Part shown: positions 35,748 through 43,772 of the stretch, piece after piece
How positions within the stretch are numbered: the stretch's first letter is position 1
Layout: each line of letters begins with the position of its first letter
Sequence record: PZ527900.1
Strand: one strand, 5' to 3'
DNA: 44,330 nucleotides
Origin: a phage
The notes under the pieces: model-generated
Told to the model about the DNA's origin: nothing
The model's input: the letters and a program-made list of their open reading frames with translations, nothing else
The model's database searches: none
Made by a program: the position numbers and the translations under genes

Positions 35748-37340
35748 ATGTTACAGCGTTTAACCTCTAAGTTAGTAAAATATAATGACGGGAATCTTAA
35801 AGACTACCTAGACCTACAACGTAATGGGTTATCAGAAGGTAATGTAGATACTATTGGTTTCTACTTGAACTTTGGTTCATTCAAGGTAAATAAAGATGCC
35901 ACATTCATTGCATCTGGTGGTCTGATTCCTGGAGGCTATGACAGGGTGGATAGAAGTTTCTCTGAGGGATATAGGTATGAATATGGTGCCCTTAAGATGC
36001 AAAAGTATTGCTTTGGTATATTTGAGGATGCTTGTGTGCTTGCTGCCATAGCAGGTAGTAGGTCAAAGGAAAATGCGACACAAATACTTGGGGCGGGTAC
36101 TGGTGCAGATGTTGCTAAATACAACAATATAGACACAGCAGCCACATTCTTTGAAAACGTAGCTCAACCTGCATATCTTCGTTCTGACACTGCCATCTTC
36201 ACACAAACTACTGCATCTGGTATTTCTGTTCCAGAAAAGATGAGATACAACATGGTAGCTATGGTTGTTAACGGTGAGAAGCGCTGGTATGGTCTTATTA
36301 AATCATGGACTCAAGACAGCATCACAGTAGACGGGTGGTATGAAGCTAAGACAGCTAAAGCGTCATTACCTTCAGGTACACTACTGATTCAACCTCAGTT
36401 GCGAGTGTGGGCGTCTAATATGCTTGTTGATATACCAGCTAATTCTGATGCGGAGTCTGCTGTTGGTCTTGAGACTATGGTTACATTGCAAAAAAGAGGT
36501 GTTGGTGCAAACACCCAAATCTACAAGGCTATCAATAACAATGTCATAGGCGAAAGGGCAGATTCAGCATATGAAAGTGTTGGCTTATTTGCTACCGGAT
36601 ATAGAGCAACACAAGGTTGTGTAGAAGGTTTTAAGTCTGAAGCTTCTAGCAATTCAGGCTTTATCTCGGTGCAAGACCAGATTGGATTACGTGTACTAAA
36701 CCCAGTAGTTAATGCCTTTCAAATTGATAACGCAGACCATACTAACCTCTTTATCGATGCAGGTGGTTCTATCATGCAGCAGTCTAAGAAGGCCGCCGGG
36801 TCTGTCGTGGCATCTTTTGGTCCAAACCCAGCGGCAGGTCTTACTGTCTATGCAAGAGGTGGTGGTGGTGCAAATGGTGCAGCTACTGTCGTTACAGTAG
36901 GTAAGGATGTAGACACTGGTCGCTCTATTAATGCTGGCGGTACTATAAACGCATCAGGTGCAGACTACGCTGAATATATGGTTAAGTCCGAAGGTTGTCC
37001 GGTGATTAATAAAGGGGATGTGTGTGGTGTAAATAGTGATGGAGAGCTAACAATGGTCTTTGATGATGCAATCTCCTTTGTTGTTAAATCAACAGACCCT
37101 GGGTTAGTAGGGGGTGACATCCATGAAGACTTAACTAAAGTGGACCGTATCGCATTCTGTGGAAGGGTTCCTGTAAATGTTGCTGGCAAAGCAGGTGACT
37201 ATATTATTCCTATCAGAAAGGATGATGGCTCTATTGGTGCTGTTTCTGTGCACGAACCAACCTTCGCGCAATACAAACTTGCTGTAGGTAGGGTATGGTC
37301 TTCTGGAGAAGAAACTATTATTGCAGTTAAAGTGTGCTGA
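35748..37340 (+). CDS. tailspike or tail fibre protein 2 with C-terminal autochaperone-like domain
   Basis: AAGGAG RBS; C-terminal GADYAEYMVKSEG...GDVCGVNSDGEL resembles the ADYAEY signature of autoproteolytic intramolecular chaperone domains. Confidence 0.7.
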   Translation: MLQRLTSKLVKYNDGNLKDYLDLQRNGLSEGNVDTIGFYLNFGSFKVNKDATFIASGGLIPGGYDRVDRSFSEGYRYEYGALKMQKYCFGIFEDACVLAAIAGSRSKENATQILGAGTGADVAKYNNIDTAATFFENVAQPAYLRSDTAIFTQTTASGISVPEKMRYNMVAMVVNGEKRWYGLIKSWTQDSITVDGWYEAKTAKASLPSGTLLIQPQLRVWASNMLVDIPANSDAESAVGLETMVTLQKRGVGANTQIYKAINNNVIGERADSAYESVGLFATGYRATQGCVEGFKSEASSNSGFISVQDQIGLRVLNPVVNAFQIDNADHTNLFIDAGGSIMQQSKKAAGSVVASFGPNPAAGLTVYARGGGGANGAATVVTVGKDVDTGRSINAGGTINASGADYAEYMVKSEGCPVINKGDVCGVNSDGELTMVFDDAISFVVKSTDPGLVGGDIHEDLTKVDRIAFCGRVPVNVAGKAGDYIIPIRKDDGSIGAVSVHEPTFAQYKLAVGRVWSSGEETIIAVKVC

Positions 37341-37341
37341 T

Positions 37342-37485
37342 ATGCCATTAGTGAGGTCAGTAAAGCAAAGTGCTGTACGCCAGAATACAGAAGAACTCAT
37401 CAAGTCAGGACGTGACCCTAAGCAGGCTTATGCTATTGCTAAGGACGTACAACGTCGTGCCTTGAAGAGGCCTTCTGCATCTTAA
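37342..37485 (+). CDS. possible small basic protein (47 aa), weak
   Basis: ORF without a convincing RBS. Confidence 0.2.
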   Translation: MPLVRSVKQSAVRQNTEELIKSGRDPKQAYAIAKDVQRRALKRPSAS

Positions 37486-37496
37486 AGGAGATTGAT

Positions 37497-37872
37497 ATGG
37501 AAACGTGGGTAACTATTCCTGGCTACCCACGGTATCAAGTGCCTACTCATGGACGTGTCAAATCGCTCATTGGTAATCACAAGATACTGAAGCCGGGCAA
37601 GTCAAAGAGTGGGTATTTAAATGTAGTTCTTAGTAACGAGGGAGGCAAGAGGACATTCCGTGTGCATCGCTTGGTTGCACTATGTCACTTGCCTAACCCT
37701 CATAACCTTCCCCTTAGTGAACCACAAGGATGAAGACAAGGCACATAATCATGTAGACAACTTAGAGTGGTGTACTGAAGAGTACAATCTAAAGTATTCA
37801 CGTGACTATGACAGGTCTTCTCTTAGTGTAACCCAAGGGAAGAAGAAGGTATGGCTTCCAGTTGACCTGTAA
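37497..37872 (+). CDS. second HNH homing endonuclease; frame broken by +1 C in a C4 run near 37710 (ORF pieces 37497-37733 and 37660-37872)
   Basis: AAGGAG RBS; N-part WVTIPGYPRYQV...HRLVALCHLPNP, C-part VNHKDEDKAHNHVDNLEWCTEEYN in the +1 frame. Confidence 0.6.
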
Positions 37873-38249
37873 CATTTAGGTAACAAAGTCAAAATTTTGA
37901 TATAGGCGTGTGTGGGGTGTCTCGGCCTCGGCCTCGCCGGGTTGTCCCCGTATGGGGTCGCTCGGCGGTTGGCTTGGGAATTGGTCTAGGCTGGTCCGTC
38001 TTCGACGGGTAGGCCGAGGCTTGCCTTGTACTCGCTTAGTGGTACACAAGGAGGGTGCCTAGGAAGCGCTAGGGCACGCCTTAGTATTGGACAAGGTGAT
38101 TGCCTTAGTGCAACCGCTTAGGGCTTACACAGGGCCATTCTGGGCCTTTATGGGCTATTGACAGGGTGGGCGGGTGTGGGCTATCTGTTCGTTTCGCCTA
38201 GCGGCTCAACTCAGCTCACTCCGCTTGCGCTACGTTCACTCGCTCACGT

Positions 38250-38380
38250 GTACCTTAGGTTATTCCTTGATGGATAGCCTAGGTTGGCCTTAGTTGATTG
38301 CCTTGGTATCAACCTTAGTTCTTATCTTAGTAACAACTTAGTAATGTACCTTAGTTAGTCTTAGTGTCAGACCTTAGTGA
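38250..38380. repeat. array of short direct repeats (C/T)CTTAGT at roughly 10-13 bp spacing
   Basis: At least nine copies in about 120 bp, with more scattered between 38079 and 38600; analogous to the CCTAAAG repeats at the T7 left end. Confidence 0.6.
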
Positions 38381-38524
38381 TTGCATAGCTAAAGCTATAA
38401 GATGCAAATATGTCGCGGTCGGTAGACCGCTAAGAAGAGTAATAGTAATAAGATGCAGCAGGAGGAACACCAGAACCCTAACAAACCTAACCTATCCTAG
38501 TCTTGTATCTATTGCTTTTCCTTA

Positions 38525-38540
38525 GTCTAACATGTGAGAC
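38525..38540. repeat. 16-bp palindrome variant GTCTAACATGTGAGAC (copy 4 of 6, one mismatch)
   Basis: Lies about 35 nt upstream of the candidate host promoter. Confidence 0.5.
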
Positions 38541-38573
38541 AACCTAGATTTGTCTTAGTGAGGTAACTTAGTG

Positions 38574-38602
38574 TTGACAAGGTAACATTAGTATAATACT
38601 AT
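38574..38602 (+). promoter_or_regulatory. candidate host sigma70 early promoter
   Basis: TTGACA, 17-nt spacer, TACTAT (a TATAAT also overlaps the spacer). Confidence 0.45.
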
Positions 38603-38746
38603 GCATCACGTAGGCGGTGCCGAGGCACCTAGTAGCCAGCTAGTAAGGCGTATGAAGAGACTAGTGCTTACATTGCTCTTTAACAATTTGCTTAGTGTAA
38701 CCTATGTATGCCGTGGTTAATTACTTATTAAAATGAGGAATTAGCT

Positions 38747-38929
38747 ATGACATTAAATAACCGTGAACTATCCGTTCTCTTCACTCTGTTATGCTACATG
38801 ATTCGTAACAACGAATTACTTACAGATGATGAGTTAGCCTTGTATCACCGCTTTCTTGACGAAGGTTGGACCGATACAGTAAACCAGAAACGTGACTTGA
38901 TGAAGGAGTTAAGCAATGTATCAGCATGA
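38747..38929 (+). CDS. early hypothetical protein (60 aa)
   Basis: TGAGGA RBS 7 nt upstream; first ORF after the genome-end region. Confidence 0.5.
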   Translation: MTLNNRELSVLFTLLCYMIRNNELLTDDELALYHRFLDEGWTDTVNQKRDLMKELSNVSA

Positions 38930-39140
38930 GGTTTTCTTCGAATCAGCTAAAGAAGTTATTCGCTTGCATGATGATATGAAGTTAGCAGACATGGATGTTG
39001 GCTTGACCAGCTTCCTGCTGGATTACAACATGGAATATCACCGCGTTACCTTGGTATCTGAGTATGACCATCAAACGATTACCGAGTATCTAGGTAGTGA
39101 AGACTATGATTACGACCAAGTAATCACAACAACCCTATAA
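38916..39140 (+). CDS. early hypothetical acidic protein (74 aa)
   Basis: AAGGAG RBS; overlaps the previous ORF by 14 nt. Confidence 0.5.
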   Translation: MYQHEVFFESAKEVIRLHDDMKLADMDVGLTSFLLDYNMEYHRVTLVSEYDHQTITEYLGSEDYDYDQVITTTL

Positions 39141-39148
39141 ATTAACTA

Positions 39149-39177
39149 TTGACAGCCACGGCATACAAGGTTACATT
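39149..39177 (+). promoter_or_regulatory. candidate second host sigma70 promoter
   Basis: TTGACA, 17-nt spacer, TACATT, upstream of the ocr-like gene. Confidence 0.35.
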
Positions 39178-39318
39178 GAGCACCAAGACGGCGACGTCTC
39201 AAAACATCCACCGCTCTTTAACAATTTGGACAAAGCTTCTTAGTCTGGCGAGGTTAGACCTAGGGTATTCTTTTGAGTACCCTATAATGTAACCTAACTA
39301 ACTAATGAGGATTAAATC

Positions 39319-39654
39319 ATGGAACGTAACGCAAACGCTTATTACAATCTGCTGGCTGCAACTGTTGAAGCCTTCAACGAGCGTATTCAGTCCGATGGTA
39401 TCCGTGAAGGTGATGATTATTCTGATGCATTACATGAGGTTGTTGATAGCAACGTGCCGCACTACTATCATGAAATTTTCACGGTGATGGCAGCCGACGG
39501 GATTGATATTAGTTTTGAGGATGAAGGTTTGATTCCTGACACGAAGGATGTAACCAAGATTCTACAAGCTCGCATCTATGAGGCGCTTTATAATGATGTA
39601 CCGAATGACAGCAATGTAGTTTGGTATGAAGACGAGGAAGAAGAGGAAGAATAA
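39319..39654 (+). CDS. ocr: Ocr-like DNA-mimic anti-restriction protein (T7 gp0.3 homologue)
   Basis: [47 protein letters not shown] closely parallels T7 Ocr as recalled ([47 protein letters not shown]); strongly acidic, ends EDEEEEEE. Confidence 0.85.
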   Translation: [111 protein letters not shown]

Positions 39655-39655
39655 G

Positions 39656-39769
39656 ATGGAAAAGCAATATAACTTCATCTTTTCGGATGGTGTAACCCTG
39701 AAGTGTTCCTTGCGATTTGCCCAGATTCGTGAGGAAGTGCTAGGAACTACATACAAGTTATTTAGCTGA
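39656..39769 (+). CDS. possible small early protein (37 aa)
   Basis: GAGGAAG RBS 6 nt upstream; its 3' end overlaps promoter-like element P9. Confidence 0.3.
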   Translation: MEKQYNFIFSDGVTLKCSLRFAQIREEVLGTTYKLFS

Positions 39770-39782
39770 CACTATAAGAGAG
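39758..39782 (+). promoter_or_regulatory. variant phage promoter P9 (A at +1)
   Basis: ATTTAGCTGACACTATAAGAG: SP6-like -17 to -1 with C at -11 and AGAG instead of GAAG start; followed by a 7-bp hairpin. Confidence 0.45.
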
Positions 39783-39849
39783 GATTTAACAGGGCGTTAC
39801 TTGTTAGCGCCCGATTAAGTTTATCTCAATAAACCAAATAGGTGAATAT

Positions 39850-40734
39850 ATGACTACTGAAAACACCCTCGTTTCTGTTCGTGAAGCTGCAACCGCTGAA
39901 ATCAAGCAACACTTAGACAATATCGGCACTTCTTACATCAAAGTTGGCGCTTGTCTGAATGAATTACGTGGTGACTTCGAAGGTCAAAAAGACTTTTTAG
40001 CTTATGTAGAATCAGAGTTCGGCATTAAGAAAGCACAATGTTACAAGCTGATGAGCGTAGCGCGTGTCTTTGAAGGTGACGAACGCTTCAAAGGTGTGGC
40101 TATGCGTGTAATGCTGGTGCTTGTTCCTTTCGCTGATGAAAGTATCATTATGGAGAAGGCCGCAGAACTTGCCGCAGATGGCAAGCTGGACACTGCCGCC
40201 GTAAACGCCTTGATTGAGCCTAAGAAAGAGCCAAAGACTGAGACGATACAATCTAAGCCTGAGCCAGTAAAACCGCAGGAGAACGCGACTGAGGACGCAG
40301 AATCACAGGAAACGCAAGCGCCGCAGGCAGTTCCGCCAGCTATCGAGTCAGATGCCGATGAAGCCTCACCATGGGAAGAGGAAAGCAAGACGGAAGCACC
40401 GAAGGCCGCGCCACGGGATAACACGGCTAACACTGAAAACGCCGCTATCGCGGGATTATTGGCACAAATTAAAGCACTGACGGAGCAGTTGCAGGCAGCT
40501 AATGACCGCATCGCCTCTTTAAGTAGCGCACGCGAAAGCAAGAAGGCAGCAGCGCCTATGCTTCCACAATTCAAATCATCTTGCTTCTACGCTCGCTTGG
40601 GTTTGAGTGCTGAGGAAGCAACGAAGAAGACCGCAGTAAACAAGGCACGCCGTGAACTGGTCAAGCTGGGATACGGTGAAGGCCATGAGGCATGGGCCTT
40701 AATCTCTGAGGCAGTAGAAGAATTGACTAAGTAA
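39850..40734 (+). CDS. early protein of unknown function (294 aa): folded N-domain, acidic/Pro-rich disordered linker, helical C-domain
   Basis: Linker EPKKEPKTETIQSKPEPVKPQENATEDAESQETQAPQAVPPAIESDADE; C-terminal FYARLGLSAEEATKKTAVNKARRELVKLGY resembles the start of a J-domain but lacks HPD. No kinase motifs. Confidence 0.65.
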   Translation: MTTENTLVSVREAATAEIKQHLDNIGTSYIKVGACLNELRGDFEGQKDFLAYVESEFGIKKAQCYKLMSVARVFEGDERFKGVAMRVMLVLVPFADESIIMEKAAELAADGKLDTAAVNALIEPKKEPKTETIQSKPEPVKPQENATEDAESQETQAPQAVPPAIESDADEASPWEEESKTEAPKAAPRDNTANTENAAIAGLLAQIKALTEQLQAANDRIASLSSARESKKAAAPMLPQFKSSCFYARLGLSAEEATKKTAVNKARRELVKLGYGEGHEAWALISEAVEELTK

Positions 40735-40797
40735 TCTTATCGGTGGTATTCTTCCTGAGTACCACCTCTTAAGGTTTCTTTCACTGGAGTAAGTATT

Positions 40798-41139
40798 ATG
40801 TGTGGCAAACGCGGCAGACCTGTTAATCAGGAGAATGAAAAGCTAAGACAAGCCGCCAAAGAGCGAGGTGATAAGGTATATGACTCTATACAACCATGTA
40901 AACACGGGCATATAGCCCGCTTGGTATCAGACAATAGGTGCCACGCCTGTAAACTTCAAAAGGCTAAAAGGTACAGAGATGCTATGAATCTGGAGCAGAA
41001 AGAAAAGCAAATGGCACACGTCAGGGCTTACATGAAGAAGCGGTATGATAGTGATCCTGCTTTTCGTAAGTATCAAATTGTAAACAGCGAAATCAACCGC
41101 CACCTACGCGCACTGAATAAACTACTAGATATGGAGTAA
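40798..41139 (+). CDS. early hypothetical basic protein with Cys/His cluster (113 aa)
   Basis: GGAG RBS; [18 protein letters not shown] may bind zinc; directly upstream of RNAP. Confidence 0.55.
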
Positions 41140-41144
41140 ACAAG

Positions 41145-43772
41145 ATGCAAGATTTACATGCTATCCAGCTTCAATTAGAGGAAGAGATGTTTAACGGCGG
41201 TATTCGTCGCTTTGAAGCAGACCAACAGCGACAAATTGCATCAGGTAATGAGTCTGATACGGCTTGGAATCGCCGCCTATTGTCTGAATTAATCGCGCCG
41301 ATGGCTGAAGGTATTCAGGCATACAAGGAAGAGTATGAAGGTAAAAGAGGTCGTGCACCGCGTGCCCTTGCTTTCATTAACTGCGTAGAAAACGAAGTGG
41401 CAGCATATATCACGATGAAAATCGTAATGGATATGCTTAACACTGATGTTACCTTGCAGGCCATTGCCATGAATGTAGCGGACCGCATCGAAGACCAAGT
41501 GCGCTTCAGTAAGCTAGAAGGTCACGCCGCAAAATACTTTGAGAAAGTGAAGAAGTCGCTTAAGGCAAGTAAGACTAAGGCATATCGCCATGCGCACAAT
41601 GTAGCAGTAGTGGCTGAAAAGTCTGTAGCTGACCGTGACGCGGATTTCTCCCGCTGGGAGGCATGGCCCAAAGACACCTTGTTGCAAATAGGTACTACCT
41701 TGCTGGAAATCTTGGAGAATAGCGTATTCTTCAACGGGCAGCCTGTTTTCCTTCGTACCTTGCGCACTAACGGCGGCAAACATGGTATTTATTACTTACA
41801 AACTAGCGAACACGTAGGTGAATGGATAACGGCCTTCAAAGAGCACGTAGCGCAACTGAGTCCTGCCTATGCACCTTGCGTTATCCCTCCGCGTCCTTGG
41901 GTGTCTCCTTTTAATGGCGGTTTTCACACCGAGAAGGTAGCAAGCCGTATCCGTCTAGTTAAAGGCAACCGTGAGCACGTCCGTAAGCTGACCAAAAAGC
42001 AAATGCCAGCGGTATACAAGGCTGTTAACGCCTTACAGGCCACTAAATGGCAAGTCAATAAGGAAGTATTGCAGGTTGTTGAAGATGTTATTCGTCTCGA
42101 CCTTGGTTATGGTGTGCCTTCATTTAAGCCACTCATCGACCGCGAGAACAAGCCAGCTAATCCCGTGCCGTTAGAGTTCCAGCATCTAAGAGGCCGTGAA
42201 CTTAAAGAGATGCTAACGCCGGAACAATGGCAAGCCTTCATTAACTGGAAAGGCGAGTGCACCAAGCTGTATACCGCTGAGACTAAGCGCGGCAGCAAAT
42301 CGGCGGCAACCGTCCGCATGGTCGGGCAGGCCCGTAAATACAGCCAGTTTGACGCTATATACTTCGTGTATGCACTGGACAGCCGCAGCCGCGTCTACGC
42401 GCAATCTAGCACGCTCTCCCCGCAATCAAACGATTTAGGCAAGGCATTGCTCCGCTTTACCGAAGGGCAACCGCTAGATAGCGCTGAGGCGCTTAAATGG
42501 TTTTTGGTGAACGGGGCTAATAGCTGGGGTTGGGATAAGAAAACTTTTGACGTGCGCACCGCTAACGTGCTGGAGGGTGAGTTCCAAGATATGTGCCGCG
42601 ACATTGCAGCCGACCCGCTGACCTTCACTCAATGGGTGAATGCCGATTCGCCTTATGGCTTCCTTGCATGGTGCTTTGAATATGCGCGTTATCTGGATGC
42701 ACTGGATGAAGGTAAGCAAGACCAATTCATGACACACCTACCCGTCCATCAAGATGGTAGTTGCTCTGGTATCCAGCACTATAGCGCGATGTTACGCGAT
42801 GAAGTAGGTGCGAAAGCGGTAAACCTTAAGCCGTCCGACGAGCCGCAAGACATTTACGGTGCGGTTGCGCAGGTTGTTATACAGAAGAATTACGCCTACA
42901 TGAATGCAGACGATGCAGTAACTTTCACATCTGGCAGCGTCACCCTTACAGGTGCGGAATTGCGTAGCATGGCTAGCGCATGGGATATGATTGGAATCAC
43001 TCGCGGCTTAACCAAAAAGCCGGTTATGACCTTGCCATATGGTTCCACCCGCTTAACCTGCCGTGAGTCGGTTATTGATTACATCGTTGATTTGGAAGAA
43101 AAAGAGGCACAAAGGGCTATTGCAGAAGGGCGGACGGCGAATCCGGTGCACCCTTTTGATAATGACCGTAAAGACTATCTGACACCGGGCGCAGCTTATA
43201 ACTATATGACAGCCTTAATTTGGCCTTCAATCTCTGAAGTTGTTAAAGCCCCTATAGTGGCGATGAAAATGATTCGCCAGCTTGCACGATTTGCAGCTAA
43301 AAGAAATGAAGGGTTAGAATACCCCTTACCTACTGGTTTCATCTTGCAACAAAAGATCATGGCAACTGATATGCTACGCGTTTCTACTTGCTTGATGGGT
43401 GAAATCAAGATGAGTCTACAGATTGAAACGGATGTAGTGGATGAAACGGCAATGATGGGCGCTGCGGCCCCTAACTTTGTTCACGGGCATGATGCTAGTC
43501 ACCTTATCCTGACTGTATGTGACCTCGTGGATAAAGGTATTACATCCATTGCAGTTATTCATGACTCTTTTGGCACTCATGCAGGCCGCACCGCAGACCT
43601 GCGGGATAGCTTAAGGGCAGAAATGGTAAAAATGTATCAAGGTCGTAATGCCCTGCAAAGCCTGCTAGATGTACATGAAGAGCGTTGGCTAGTAGATACC
43701 GGCATCCAAGTGCCGGAGCAAGGGGAGTTTAACCTTGAAGAGATCTTAGTTTCTGACTATTGCTTCGCATAA
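41145..43772 (+). CDS. single-subunit DNA-directed RNA polymerase (SP6/T7 family)
   Basis: 875 aa; [42 protein letters not shown] and C-terminal ...DYCFA; N-terminus [32 protein letters not shown] matches SP6 RNAP as recalled. Confidence 0.95.

Follow-up and report, generated by a model that had tools for sequence, protein, structure and literature searches.

Early region of a K1-5-like Vectrevirus genome: an Ocr gene, a core gp6 gene and a rare zinc-module gene candidate in a class I module

The DNA analysed here, sequence record PZ527900.1, is a 44.3-kb stretch (44,330 nucleotides, hereafter the window) that represents, in circularly permuted form, the genome of a podophage resembling K1-5 and K1E (Autographiviridae, Molineuxvirinae, genus Vectrevirus). 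Our subject is the early region (38574-41140), which on the physical genome is the first transcribed stretch from the left, extends up to the single-subunit RNA polymerase gene and contains the anti-restriction gene ocr, the conserved gene gp6 and a rare 113-codon gene called z113 below. The first 25 kb of the window are ~90-91% identical to the nearest isolates, and by this DNA identity the phage is a new species-level Vectrevirus, and no more than that. The early region itself has matches in 143 phage records, the best of which aligns with 85% of the query (87-90% identical). Related loci used for comparison carry L-numbers (L003, L006 and so on).

An original prediction, made from the letters alone, had placed six open reading frames (ORFs) between candidate host promoters and the polymerase gene, and all six are found on the + strand at the positions it gave (Table 1). 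Five have a single counterpart each in K1-5, namely gp1, gp2, gp3 (Ocr), gp4 and gp6, and these genes and their order are common to the early regions of K1-5, K1E and SP6. Identity of the early proteins to those of K1-5 and K1E is 72-100%, and both K1-5 and the window have a phage promoter before gp6 and a hairpin after it. Unlike K1-5, the window lacks gp5 and carries the additional gene z113, and DNA identity over all is only ~90%. Neither K1-5 nor K1E has z113; in these two phages the distance from gp6 to the polymerase gene is 63 bp. Homologues in related phages exist for six of six ORFs. Against a related metagenomic contig, 96-98% identical in these proteins, the ratio of nonsynonymous to synonymous substitution rates (dN/dS) ranges from 0.04 to 0.15 over the six ORFs (gp1 0.08, gp2 0.15, gp4 0.07, gp6 0.08, z113 0.04), with 0.02 for the polymerase gene. 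Since dN/dS is low and homologues occur in related phages, we take the ORFs to be real functional genes rather than chance ORFs; they look expressed and are under purifying selection.

Scans of all six proteins with Pfam, NCBIfam and PADLOC returned nothing significant except for Ocr, which agrees with the claim that the other five have no recognisable enzymatic motifs. PDB sequence searches, single-sequence and profile, gave nothing significant for the uncharacterised early proteins, and their PHROG families are all labelled 'unknown function'. None of the five was identified as a housekeeping enzyme by homology search, so the original prediction is not refuted on that ground. Literature searches turned up no work on the function of gp1, gp2, gp4, gp5 or gp6; to our knowledge, Ocr is the only early gene of K1-5/K1E/SP6-type phages with a known function.

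Table 1. Genes, putative protein domains and candidate transcription signals in the early region (window coordinates; aa, amino acids)
Feature	Position	Strand	Remarks
Sigma-70-like early promoter (TTGACA, 17 nt, TACTAT)	38574-38602	+	motif scan; flanks conserved in K1-5 relatives
gp1	38747-38929	+	60 aa; K1-5 gene 1; phrog_9275
gp2	38916-39140	+	74 aa; K1-5 gene 2; phrog_6403
Second sigma-70-like promoter, perfect TTGACA	39149-39177	+	motif scan; in variable gp2-gp3 gap
gp3 = Ocr	39319-39654	+	111 aa; K1-5 gene 3; phrog_2568
gp4	39656-39769	+	37 aa; K1-5 gene 4; phrog_11746
SP6/K1-5-type phage RNA polymerase promoter core TGACACTATAAGAGA	39767-39781	+	exact match; overlaps gp4 end
Stable hairpin just 3' of phage promoter	39792-39812	+	folding -14.3 kcal/mol, z -3.8
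gp6	39850-40734	+	294 aa; K1-5 gene 6; phrog_4571
gp6 N-terminal helical domain, aa 1-124, ParB/KorB-type helix-turn-helix-like fold (predicted)	39850-40221	+	model; pLDDT 82-89 at residues 31-120
gp6 acidic Pro/Gln/Glu-rich linker, aa 125-191, predicted disordered	40222-40422	+	pLDDT <50
gp6 long helix or coiled coil, aa 193-234 (~40 residues; predicted)	40426-40551	+	model
gp6 PxLPQF motif, aa 236-241, then J-like three-helix domain, aa ~245-294 (predicted)	40552-40731	+	model pLDDT 82-89; conservation
Hairpin and T-rich tail after gp6	40742-40766	+	folding -17.8 kcal/mol, z -5.7
z113 (113-aa ORF)	40798-41139	+	no counterpart in K1-5 or K1E
z113 putative zinc module, aa 17-51, R..A...G...Y....PC..GH..R......C..C	40846-40950	+	invariant columns; putative ligands C34, H38, C48, C51
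z113 C-terminal helical hairpin, aa 65-112, conserved KRY..D..FR	40990-41133	+	AlphaFold2 model and alignment
Single-subunit RNA polymerase, K1-5 gp7 homologue	41145-43772	+	Shine-Dalgarno GGAGTAA

The product of gene 3 matches Pfam PF08684 (1.7e-30; 105.9 bits against a cut-off of 25; profile positions 5-97 of 101), the T7 Ocr structures PDB 1s7z/2y7c (1e-26, residues 7-110 on 7-110) and phrog_2568 (9.5e-52). It carries 29 Asp and Glu residues against 6 Lys and Arg (isoelectric point, pI, 4.05). By these matches gp3 is evidently Ocr, a DNA-mimic anti-restriction protein, as the original prediction had recognised, and the K1-5 and K1E RefSeq records already name gene 3 'ocr-like anti-restriction'. 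The likeness to T7 Ocr (gp0.3) extends to the full-length match, the strong acidity and the early host-transcribed position, but the window protein differs in a poly-Glu C-terminal tail. T7 Ocr blocks type I restriction-modification and BREX, and by this precedent the window protein is predicted to block both. In Erwinia phage Era103 an S-adenosylmethionine (S-AdoMet) lyase (PF23780, 2.8e-34) lies at the equivalent early position upstream of gp6, and loci L006 and L007 have other uncharacterised proteins there. Because the lyase replaces Ocr in Era103, we regard the position as an anti-restriction slot. The region is the class I module, which in T7-like phages is the seat of host-takeover genes.

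Full-length gp6 occurs in 214 phage records at 31-93% identity (tblastn), distributed over the Molineuxvirinae, the Colwellvirinae and Gajwadongvirus; the hosts of these phages include Escherichia, Klebsiella, Salmonella, Proteus, Erwinia, Pectobacterium, Pseudomonas, Vibrio, Aeromonas, Shewanella and Marinomonas. In each of the loci inspected the polymerase gene follows gp6 closely, with 0-2 small variable genes between them, and this distribution and position mark gp6 as a core gene of SP6-like phages. It is not accessory, but core in at least three groups of these phages. No match was found in plasmids (tblastn). In the literature, the function of SP6 gp6 is stated as unidentified (PMC4099482). 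Pfam, NCBIfam and PDB hold no sequence match to gp6; DUF3102 (PF11300) does not match the window protein and reaches E 0.01, below any threshold, in one of 16 homologues. Matches to BicD and Rad50 were set aside as coiled-coil or low-complexity noise.

An AlphaFold2 model of gp6, built from 12 sequences, predicts a helical N-terminal domain, a disordered acidic linker, a long helix or coiled coil and a small C-terminal three-helix domain. The linker is poorly conserved and variable in length (pI 4.3 for the slice aa 125-192), and the PxLPQF motif is invariant among homologues, reading PMLPQF in the window phage. The helix-turn-helix-like fold predicted for the N-terminal domain would resemble that of ParB and KorB but is not diagnostic, because Raf1 scores similarly. 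The N-terminal CTP-binding and ParB-type C-terminal dimerisation domains of ParB, Spo0J, KorB and SopB are absent from gp6, and neither gp6 nor its profile has a sequence-level match to the ParB family in Pfam, NCBIfam or PDB. The resemblance of the C-terminus to J-domains was first noticed by eye and then tested with hhalign, using a profile of nine diverse gp6 C-termini against a profile of ten J-domain sequences entered by hand. The alignment scored 28.3 (probability 71.5%), compared with 10.0 +/- 2.3 for 200 column shuffles (maximum 18.3) and 10.3 for the reversed profile, which places it 8 standard deviations above the shuffles. The predicted structure likewise displays the helix II-loop-helix III fold of J-domains.

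The HPD tripeptide is absent in all 16 aligned gp6 homologues, and an invariant Y-G-x-x-H loop stands in its place (GYGEGH in the window phage, of the GYGxGH type). In this loop gp6 differs from J-domains and their HPD-less relatives (Tim14/Tim16, DNAJC27, ERdj5, HscB), and unlike J-domains the J-like domain would be truncated after helix III and fused to a DNA-binding-like domain. The model thus suggests a J-like fold, but gp6, lacking both HPD and a PF00226 match, is not a member of the J-protein family. An assignment of gp6 as ParB/KorB-like and J-like, tentative as the model leaves it, was not found in the literature. The fold and the profile match could also be taken to mean that gp6 is a true J-protein co-chaperone, recruiting and activating host DnaK on DNA-bound substrates, and phage J-proteins reportedly exist (Rki of phage RB43). 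However, HPD is required for stimulation of the Hsp70 ATPase and is replaced in 16 of 16 homologues, and Pfam DnaJ finds no match in gp6; we regard this explanation as improbable.

The gene z113 is, by contrast with the core gene gp6, a rare cassette. Two close relatives are found among 5.8 billion clustered proteins, and the phage collection includes three Klebsiella Molineuxvirinae phages with ~42% identical proteins, together with two longer Vibrio phage proteins (226-251 aa) whose similarity to z113 lies in their N-termini. An exhaustive phmmer search recovers 276 relatives at E <= 1e-3, and a tblastn search of plasmids gave no match. The nearest relatives are 31-49% identical, mostly 97-122 aa long, and have the whole architecture in common. 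Wherever the context is visible, members of this subfamily lie between gp6 and the polymerase gene of SP6-like phages. The seven loci with z113 in this slot (the window, L008/L009, Klebsiella phage F4M1D, L006, L007, L010 and L011) show identities of 34-48% for z113, 47-59% for gp6 and 69-77% for the polymerase. Divergence of z113 thus parallels that of its neighbours, which suggests an old gene that was lost by most Vectreviruses, or one regained by recombination. The edges of the cassette are two copies of the Shine-Dalgarno sequence GGAGTAA: z113 has its own Shine-Dalgarno, and its stop codon lies inside the GGAGTAA of the polymerase gene.

The Cys/His cluster that had been pointed out in the 113-aa protein is real and conserved, with C34, G37, H38, R41, C48 and C51 invariant across the subfamily. 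It belongs to a wider family of modules of ~35 residues (R..A...G...Y.TG.PC..GH...R......C..C), whose consensus z113 follows at every conserved position except TG. The module is present in 1-4 copies per protein in 148 of the 149 listed family matches. Pfam identifies HNH in 26 of 120 family members and Endonuclease VII in 17, with no other recurrent domain in the 120 apart from cysteine-pattern noise. An H.DH..P...N-type motif occurs in 48 of the 149 listed members, and in these proteins every module (111/111) precedes the nuclease motif on its N-terminal side. No HNH (beta-beta-alpha-metal) catalytic motif is found in z113 itself: it has no Pfam match, and the chain ends at residue 113, before the H.DH..P...N of its homologues. 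The AlphaFold2 model is confident (predicted local distance difference test, pLDDT, 89.3) and depicts a helix, a beta-hairpin knuckle, a second helix and a long helical hairpin. This hairpin resembles the RKYREQNKE helical repeats that join zinc modules to the HNH domain in the Vibrio phage proteins. Compared with phage and prophage endonucleases of the HNH (PF01844) or EndoVII (PF02945) type, in which N-terminal modules are repeated, z113 corresponds to one module and a helical segment, and differs in its single module, the lack of a nuclease, the fixed position before the polymerase gene and a subfamily-specific C-terminal helix. From this comparison we infer that z113 is a zinc-stabilised DNA-recognition module kept without its nuclease, with zinc binding and DNA binding both as predictions. 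We found no such assignment, of a putative nuclease-less HNH targeting module, in the literature.

A nuclease-less relative of HNH proteins might instead be a decaying, functionless remnant of a free-standing homing endonuclease beside the polymerase gene. The module is elsewhere N-terminal to HNH nucleases, homing endonuclease genes often adjoin conserved phage genes, z113 is missing from nearly all Vectreviruses, and elsewhere in the window genome a homing endonuclease is disrupted by a frameshift. Decay is nevertheless very improbable: z113 differs from the related contig by 23 synonymous and 5 nonsynonymous changes (dN/dS 0.04), and its reading frame begins with its own Shine-Dalgarno and ends inside that of the polymerase gene. 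Furthermore, the 97-122-aa architecture, the zinc ligands and the KRY..D..FR helix are kept at 34-48% identity in the same slot, all without a nuclease.

A different question is what the zinc knuckle would bind. Small early zinc proteins can bind proteins, z113 abuts the polymerase gene and terminates within its Shine-Dalgarno, and no structural relative links it to DNA binders; the knuckle could then bind protein or RNA, for example as a small inhibitor or modulator of the host or phage polymerase. On the other hand, the module recurs with no domain partner other than a DNA nuclease, which is always C-terminal to it, and the high positive charge of z113 (pI 9.9) fits nucleic acid binding. We consider the protein or RNA binder unlikely, with an appreciable chance of proving right. 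For a DNA-recognition module a functional analogy is available in I-TevI, which reportedly autorepresses transcription through its DNA-binding domain and would be a precedent for regulatory, non-cleaving work by the DNA-binding module of a homing nuclease. The analogy goes no further than function: I-TevI belongs to the GIY-YIG family, has another fold and another zinc finger, and keeps its nuclease.

Transcription signals would place these genes under more than one polymerase. Two sigma-70-like sites have a perfect TTGACA (at 38574 and 39149). Overall, such sites are not more frequent than in shuffles (5 seen versus 6.1 expected), so a claim of promoter enrichment was dropped. The phage promoter at 39767-39781 had been overlooked in the original prediction. 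The core of that promoter has 9 matches where 1.67 are expected, with related cores on the + strand at 2343, 8566, 11726, 33647 and 43872, and the promoter before gp6 is conserved in K1-5 and L008. Because it precedes gp6, the genes gp6 and z113 and the polymerase gene should be transcribable by the phage enzyme as well, and gp6 and z113 would not be purely host-promoter genes. The hairpin after gp6 keeps its stem through paired substitutions in K1-5 and in Klebsiella phage F4M1D, and Proteus phage Premi has a terminator annotated at this position. It is a candidate terminator or attenuator, or a processing site; either read-through past it or the phage promoter would be required for z113 and the polymerase gene.

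Comparison of the loci reveals three variable slots (gp2-gp3, gp4-gp6 and gp6-polymerase), which are where the genuinely accessory genes reside; z113 occupies the last. K1E has genes 2.5 and 2.8 in the first of them. The second (39770-39849) is empty in the window, where the hairpin leads straight to the ribosome-binding site of gp6, and in K1-5 holds the 62-aa gene 5, which has a signal-peptide-like N-terminus and is of a type found in only 14 phage records. Given this small number, most phages have neither z113 nor gp5, and the idea that the two are mutually exclusive alternatives was dropped. The third slot contains a T7 gp0.7-like protein kinase in Vibrio phage AS51 (L017:1988-2884; phrog_18305, 7.2e-107) and unrelated, uncharacterised 57-82-aa proteins in phages Njord, Aer_P220, CPG1g and ECBP5 (L015, L016, L018 and L019).

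The small early proteins differ in how they evolve. gp1 (pI 4.6; phrog_9275 at 3.7e-40) is 89-93% identical to its counterparts in K1-5, K1E and L008. gp2 (phrog_6403 at 4.3e-26) is acidic, with a pI of 4.2, and is the fastest-diverging early gene (dN/dS 0.15-0.16), at 61-73% identity where other early proteins have 90-100%. For gp4 (phrog_11746 at 1e-29), the mechanical ORF begins at 39626, and the 37-aa form starting at 39656 agrees with PHROG and the K1-5 annotation. The protein is 100% identical to K1-5 gp4, with 12 synonymous and 0 nonsynonymous changes; its constraint is unusually strong for an unannotated microprotein. Identity is 71-77% in Klebsiella-type relatives, and gp4 is retained downstream of the non-Ocr genes of L006 and L007. 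Like gp6, gp4 is a core gene of SP6-like phages. Searches of Pfam, PHROG, NCBIfam and PDB detected no relatives of known function for gp1, gp2 or gp4.

These results bear on the suggestion that the uncharacterised early proteins are prime anti-defence candidates, which in its strongest form would make all five dedicated defence inhibitors in an island around Ocr. Such an island would adjoin Ocr in the host-transcribed early region, next to a gene-3 slot that alternates between Ocr and S-AdoMet lyase; the three variable slots change their cargo, gp2 is small, acidic and fast-diverging, and z113 is rare and patchy. Counter-defence genes are concentrated in phage accessory regions (bioRxiv 10.1101/2023.04.06.535777). 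Against this, gp6 is full-length in 214 records with hosts from Escherichia to Vibrio, Pseudomonas and Marinomonas, the gp4 protein is invariant relative to K1-5, and core, slow-evolving genes are atypical of defence inhibitors. The proteins show no similarity to defence components (PADLOC) or solved inhibitors (PDB), and the homology of z113 leads to a nuclease targeting module. An island of five inhibitors is therefore unlikely in our view, if far from negligible. A blanket anti-defence label is drawn from position, with no match to a known defence family in PADLOC, and the results just given speak against it. Applied gene by gene, the label holds for Ocr. It is plausible for gp2 and z113 as a guess from position, with gp2 the best remaining candidate because it is acidic and fast-diverging. 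The wide host range of gp6 and the absence of nonsynonymous change in gp4 fit a core infection role better than that of an arms-race inhibitor; an anti-defence role is unlikely for both.

We therefore favour, with a probability of roughly 0.6, the reading of the early region as the conserved class I module of a new Vectrevirus, in which gp6 would be a DNA-bound adaptor and z113 a domesticated targeting module. Host RNA polymerase would transcribe the module from the sigma-70 promoters, and the phage polymerase would also transcribe it from 39767 onward. As the model suggests, gp6 may be a dimeric DNA-bound adaptor or regulator, seated on DNA by its ParB/KorB-like helix-turn-helix domain, with the flexible acidic linker and the coiled coil presenting the J-like domain and the PxLPQF peptide to a partner protein. 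Lacking HPD, the J-like domain should not fire the DnaK ATPase; it could dock onto a J-protein or another partner, by analogy to Tim16 with Tim14. gp6 would thus be a core takeover or transcription/DNA-handling factor rather than a defence-specific inhibitor. z113, with its CHCC zinc knuckle and helical hairpin, would be the DNA-targeting part of a phage HNH endonuclease, now domesticated. It would bind DNA without cutting it, either to regulate a specific site or to compete with a nuclease by occupying its target.

Several results weigh against this interpretation. Sequence-level family matches that would support a function are missing for gp1, gp2, gp4, gp6 and z113 in Pfam, NCBIfam, PADLOC and PDB. 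The gp6 model is moderate overall (mean pLDDT 69.7 and predicted template modelling score 0.39, from 12 sequences), and the Foldseek matches of its N-terminal domain to ParB-like structures are weak (E 0.4-8). The J-domain profile was made from ten hand-entered sequences and reached a probability of only 71.5%, and Pfam DnaJ (PF00226) does not match the C-terminal 67 aa of gp6 even at E <= 10. Foldseek found no structural relative of z113 in PDB, and approximately two-thirds of the listed members of its family have no recognisable nuclease motif, some of them possibly being fragments. DNA binding by z113 is read solely from the pairing of the module with nucleases and from its charge.

A bolder form of the same idea would make gp6 the representative of an undescribed class of core hub proteins, tethered to DNA by the ParB/KorB-like domain, whose HPD-less J-like domain captures or silences a host J-protein/DnaK or a nucleoid factor during takeover, with z113 as a domesticated site-shielding module; the region of the polymerase gene, for example, might be guarded from the nuclease of a competitor or of the host. 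We hold this version to be doubtful, with only a small chance of being correct. The region is of a known kind, with one anti-restriction gene already on record and one accessory gene not sampled before, and overall it would little surprise a specialist. Encapsulated E. coli, Klebsiella and Salmonella are the bacteria for which phages of the K1-5, K1E and SP6 type are used as therapy candidates. For such phages our results point to gp2 and the slot genes for defence evasion, and to gp4 and gp6 for basic infection biology; current understanding is unchanged unless confirmed at the bench.

Some names attached to Ocr and gp6 homologues in sequence records ('putative protein kinase', 'late transcription factor VLTF-4', 'andolysin'/'endolysin', 'similar to DNA polymerase') are not supported by any search and were rejected as annotation errors. 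Upstream of the early region, after a tail-spike-like gene, a 54-aa ORF at 37321-37485 (+) belongs to phrog_2423 ('unknown function', 6.1e-22). It is followed at 37497-37872 (+) by a homing endonuclease with a NUMOD4 domain (PF07463, 6.7e-10) and then HNH_3 (PF13392, 8.5e-4). Its coding sequence is split over two overlapping ORFs (37497-37733 and 37660-37872), and hence appears to be frameshifted. Corresponding DNA, 1-2 nt shorter and 94-96% identical, is present in six phage records only: Sem1-4, where it is annotated as an HNH homing endonuclease, and two LI10P3 records in which it is left unannotated.

Finally, the hexamer CTTAGT is clustered upstream of and between the early promoters: half of its + strand copies in the genome (14 of 28) fall within ~660 bp (38035-38691), and none of the 17 copies of the reverse complement ACTAAG lies within 37900-38760. 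The array resembles the short repeat arrays found near the genome ends of T7-like phages.

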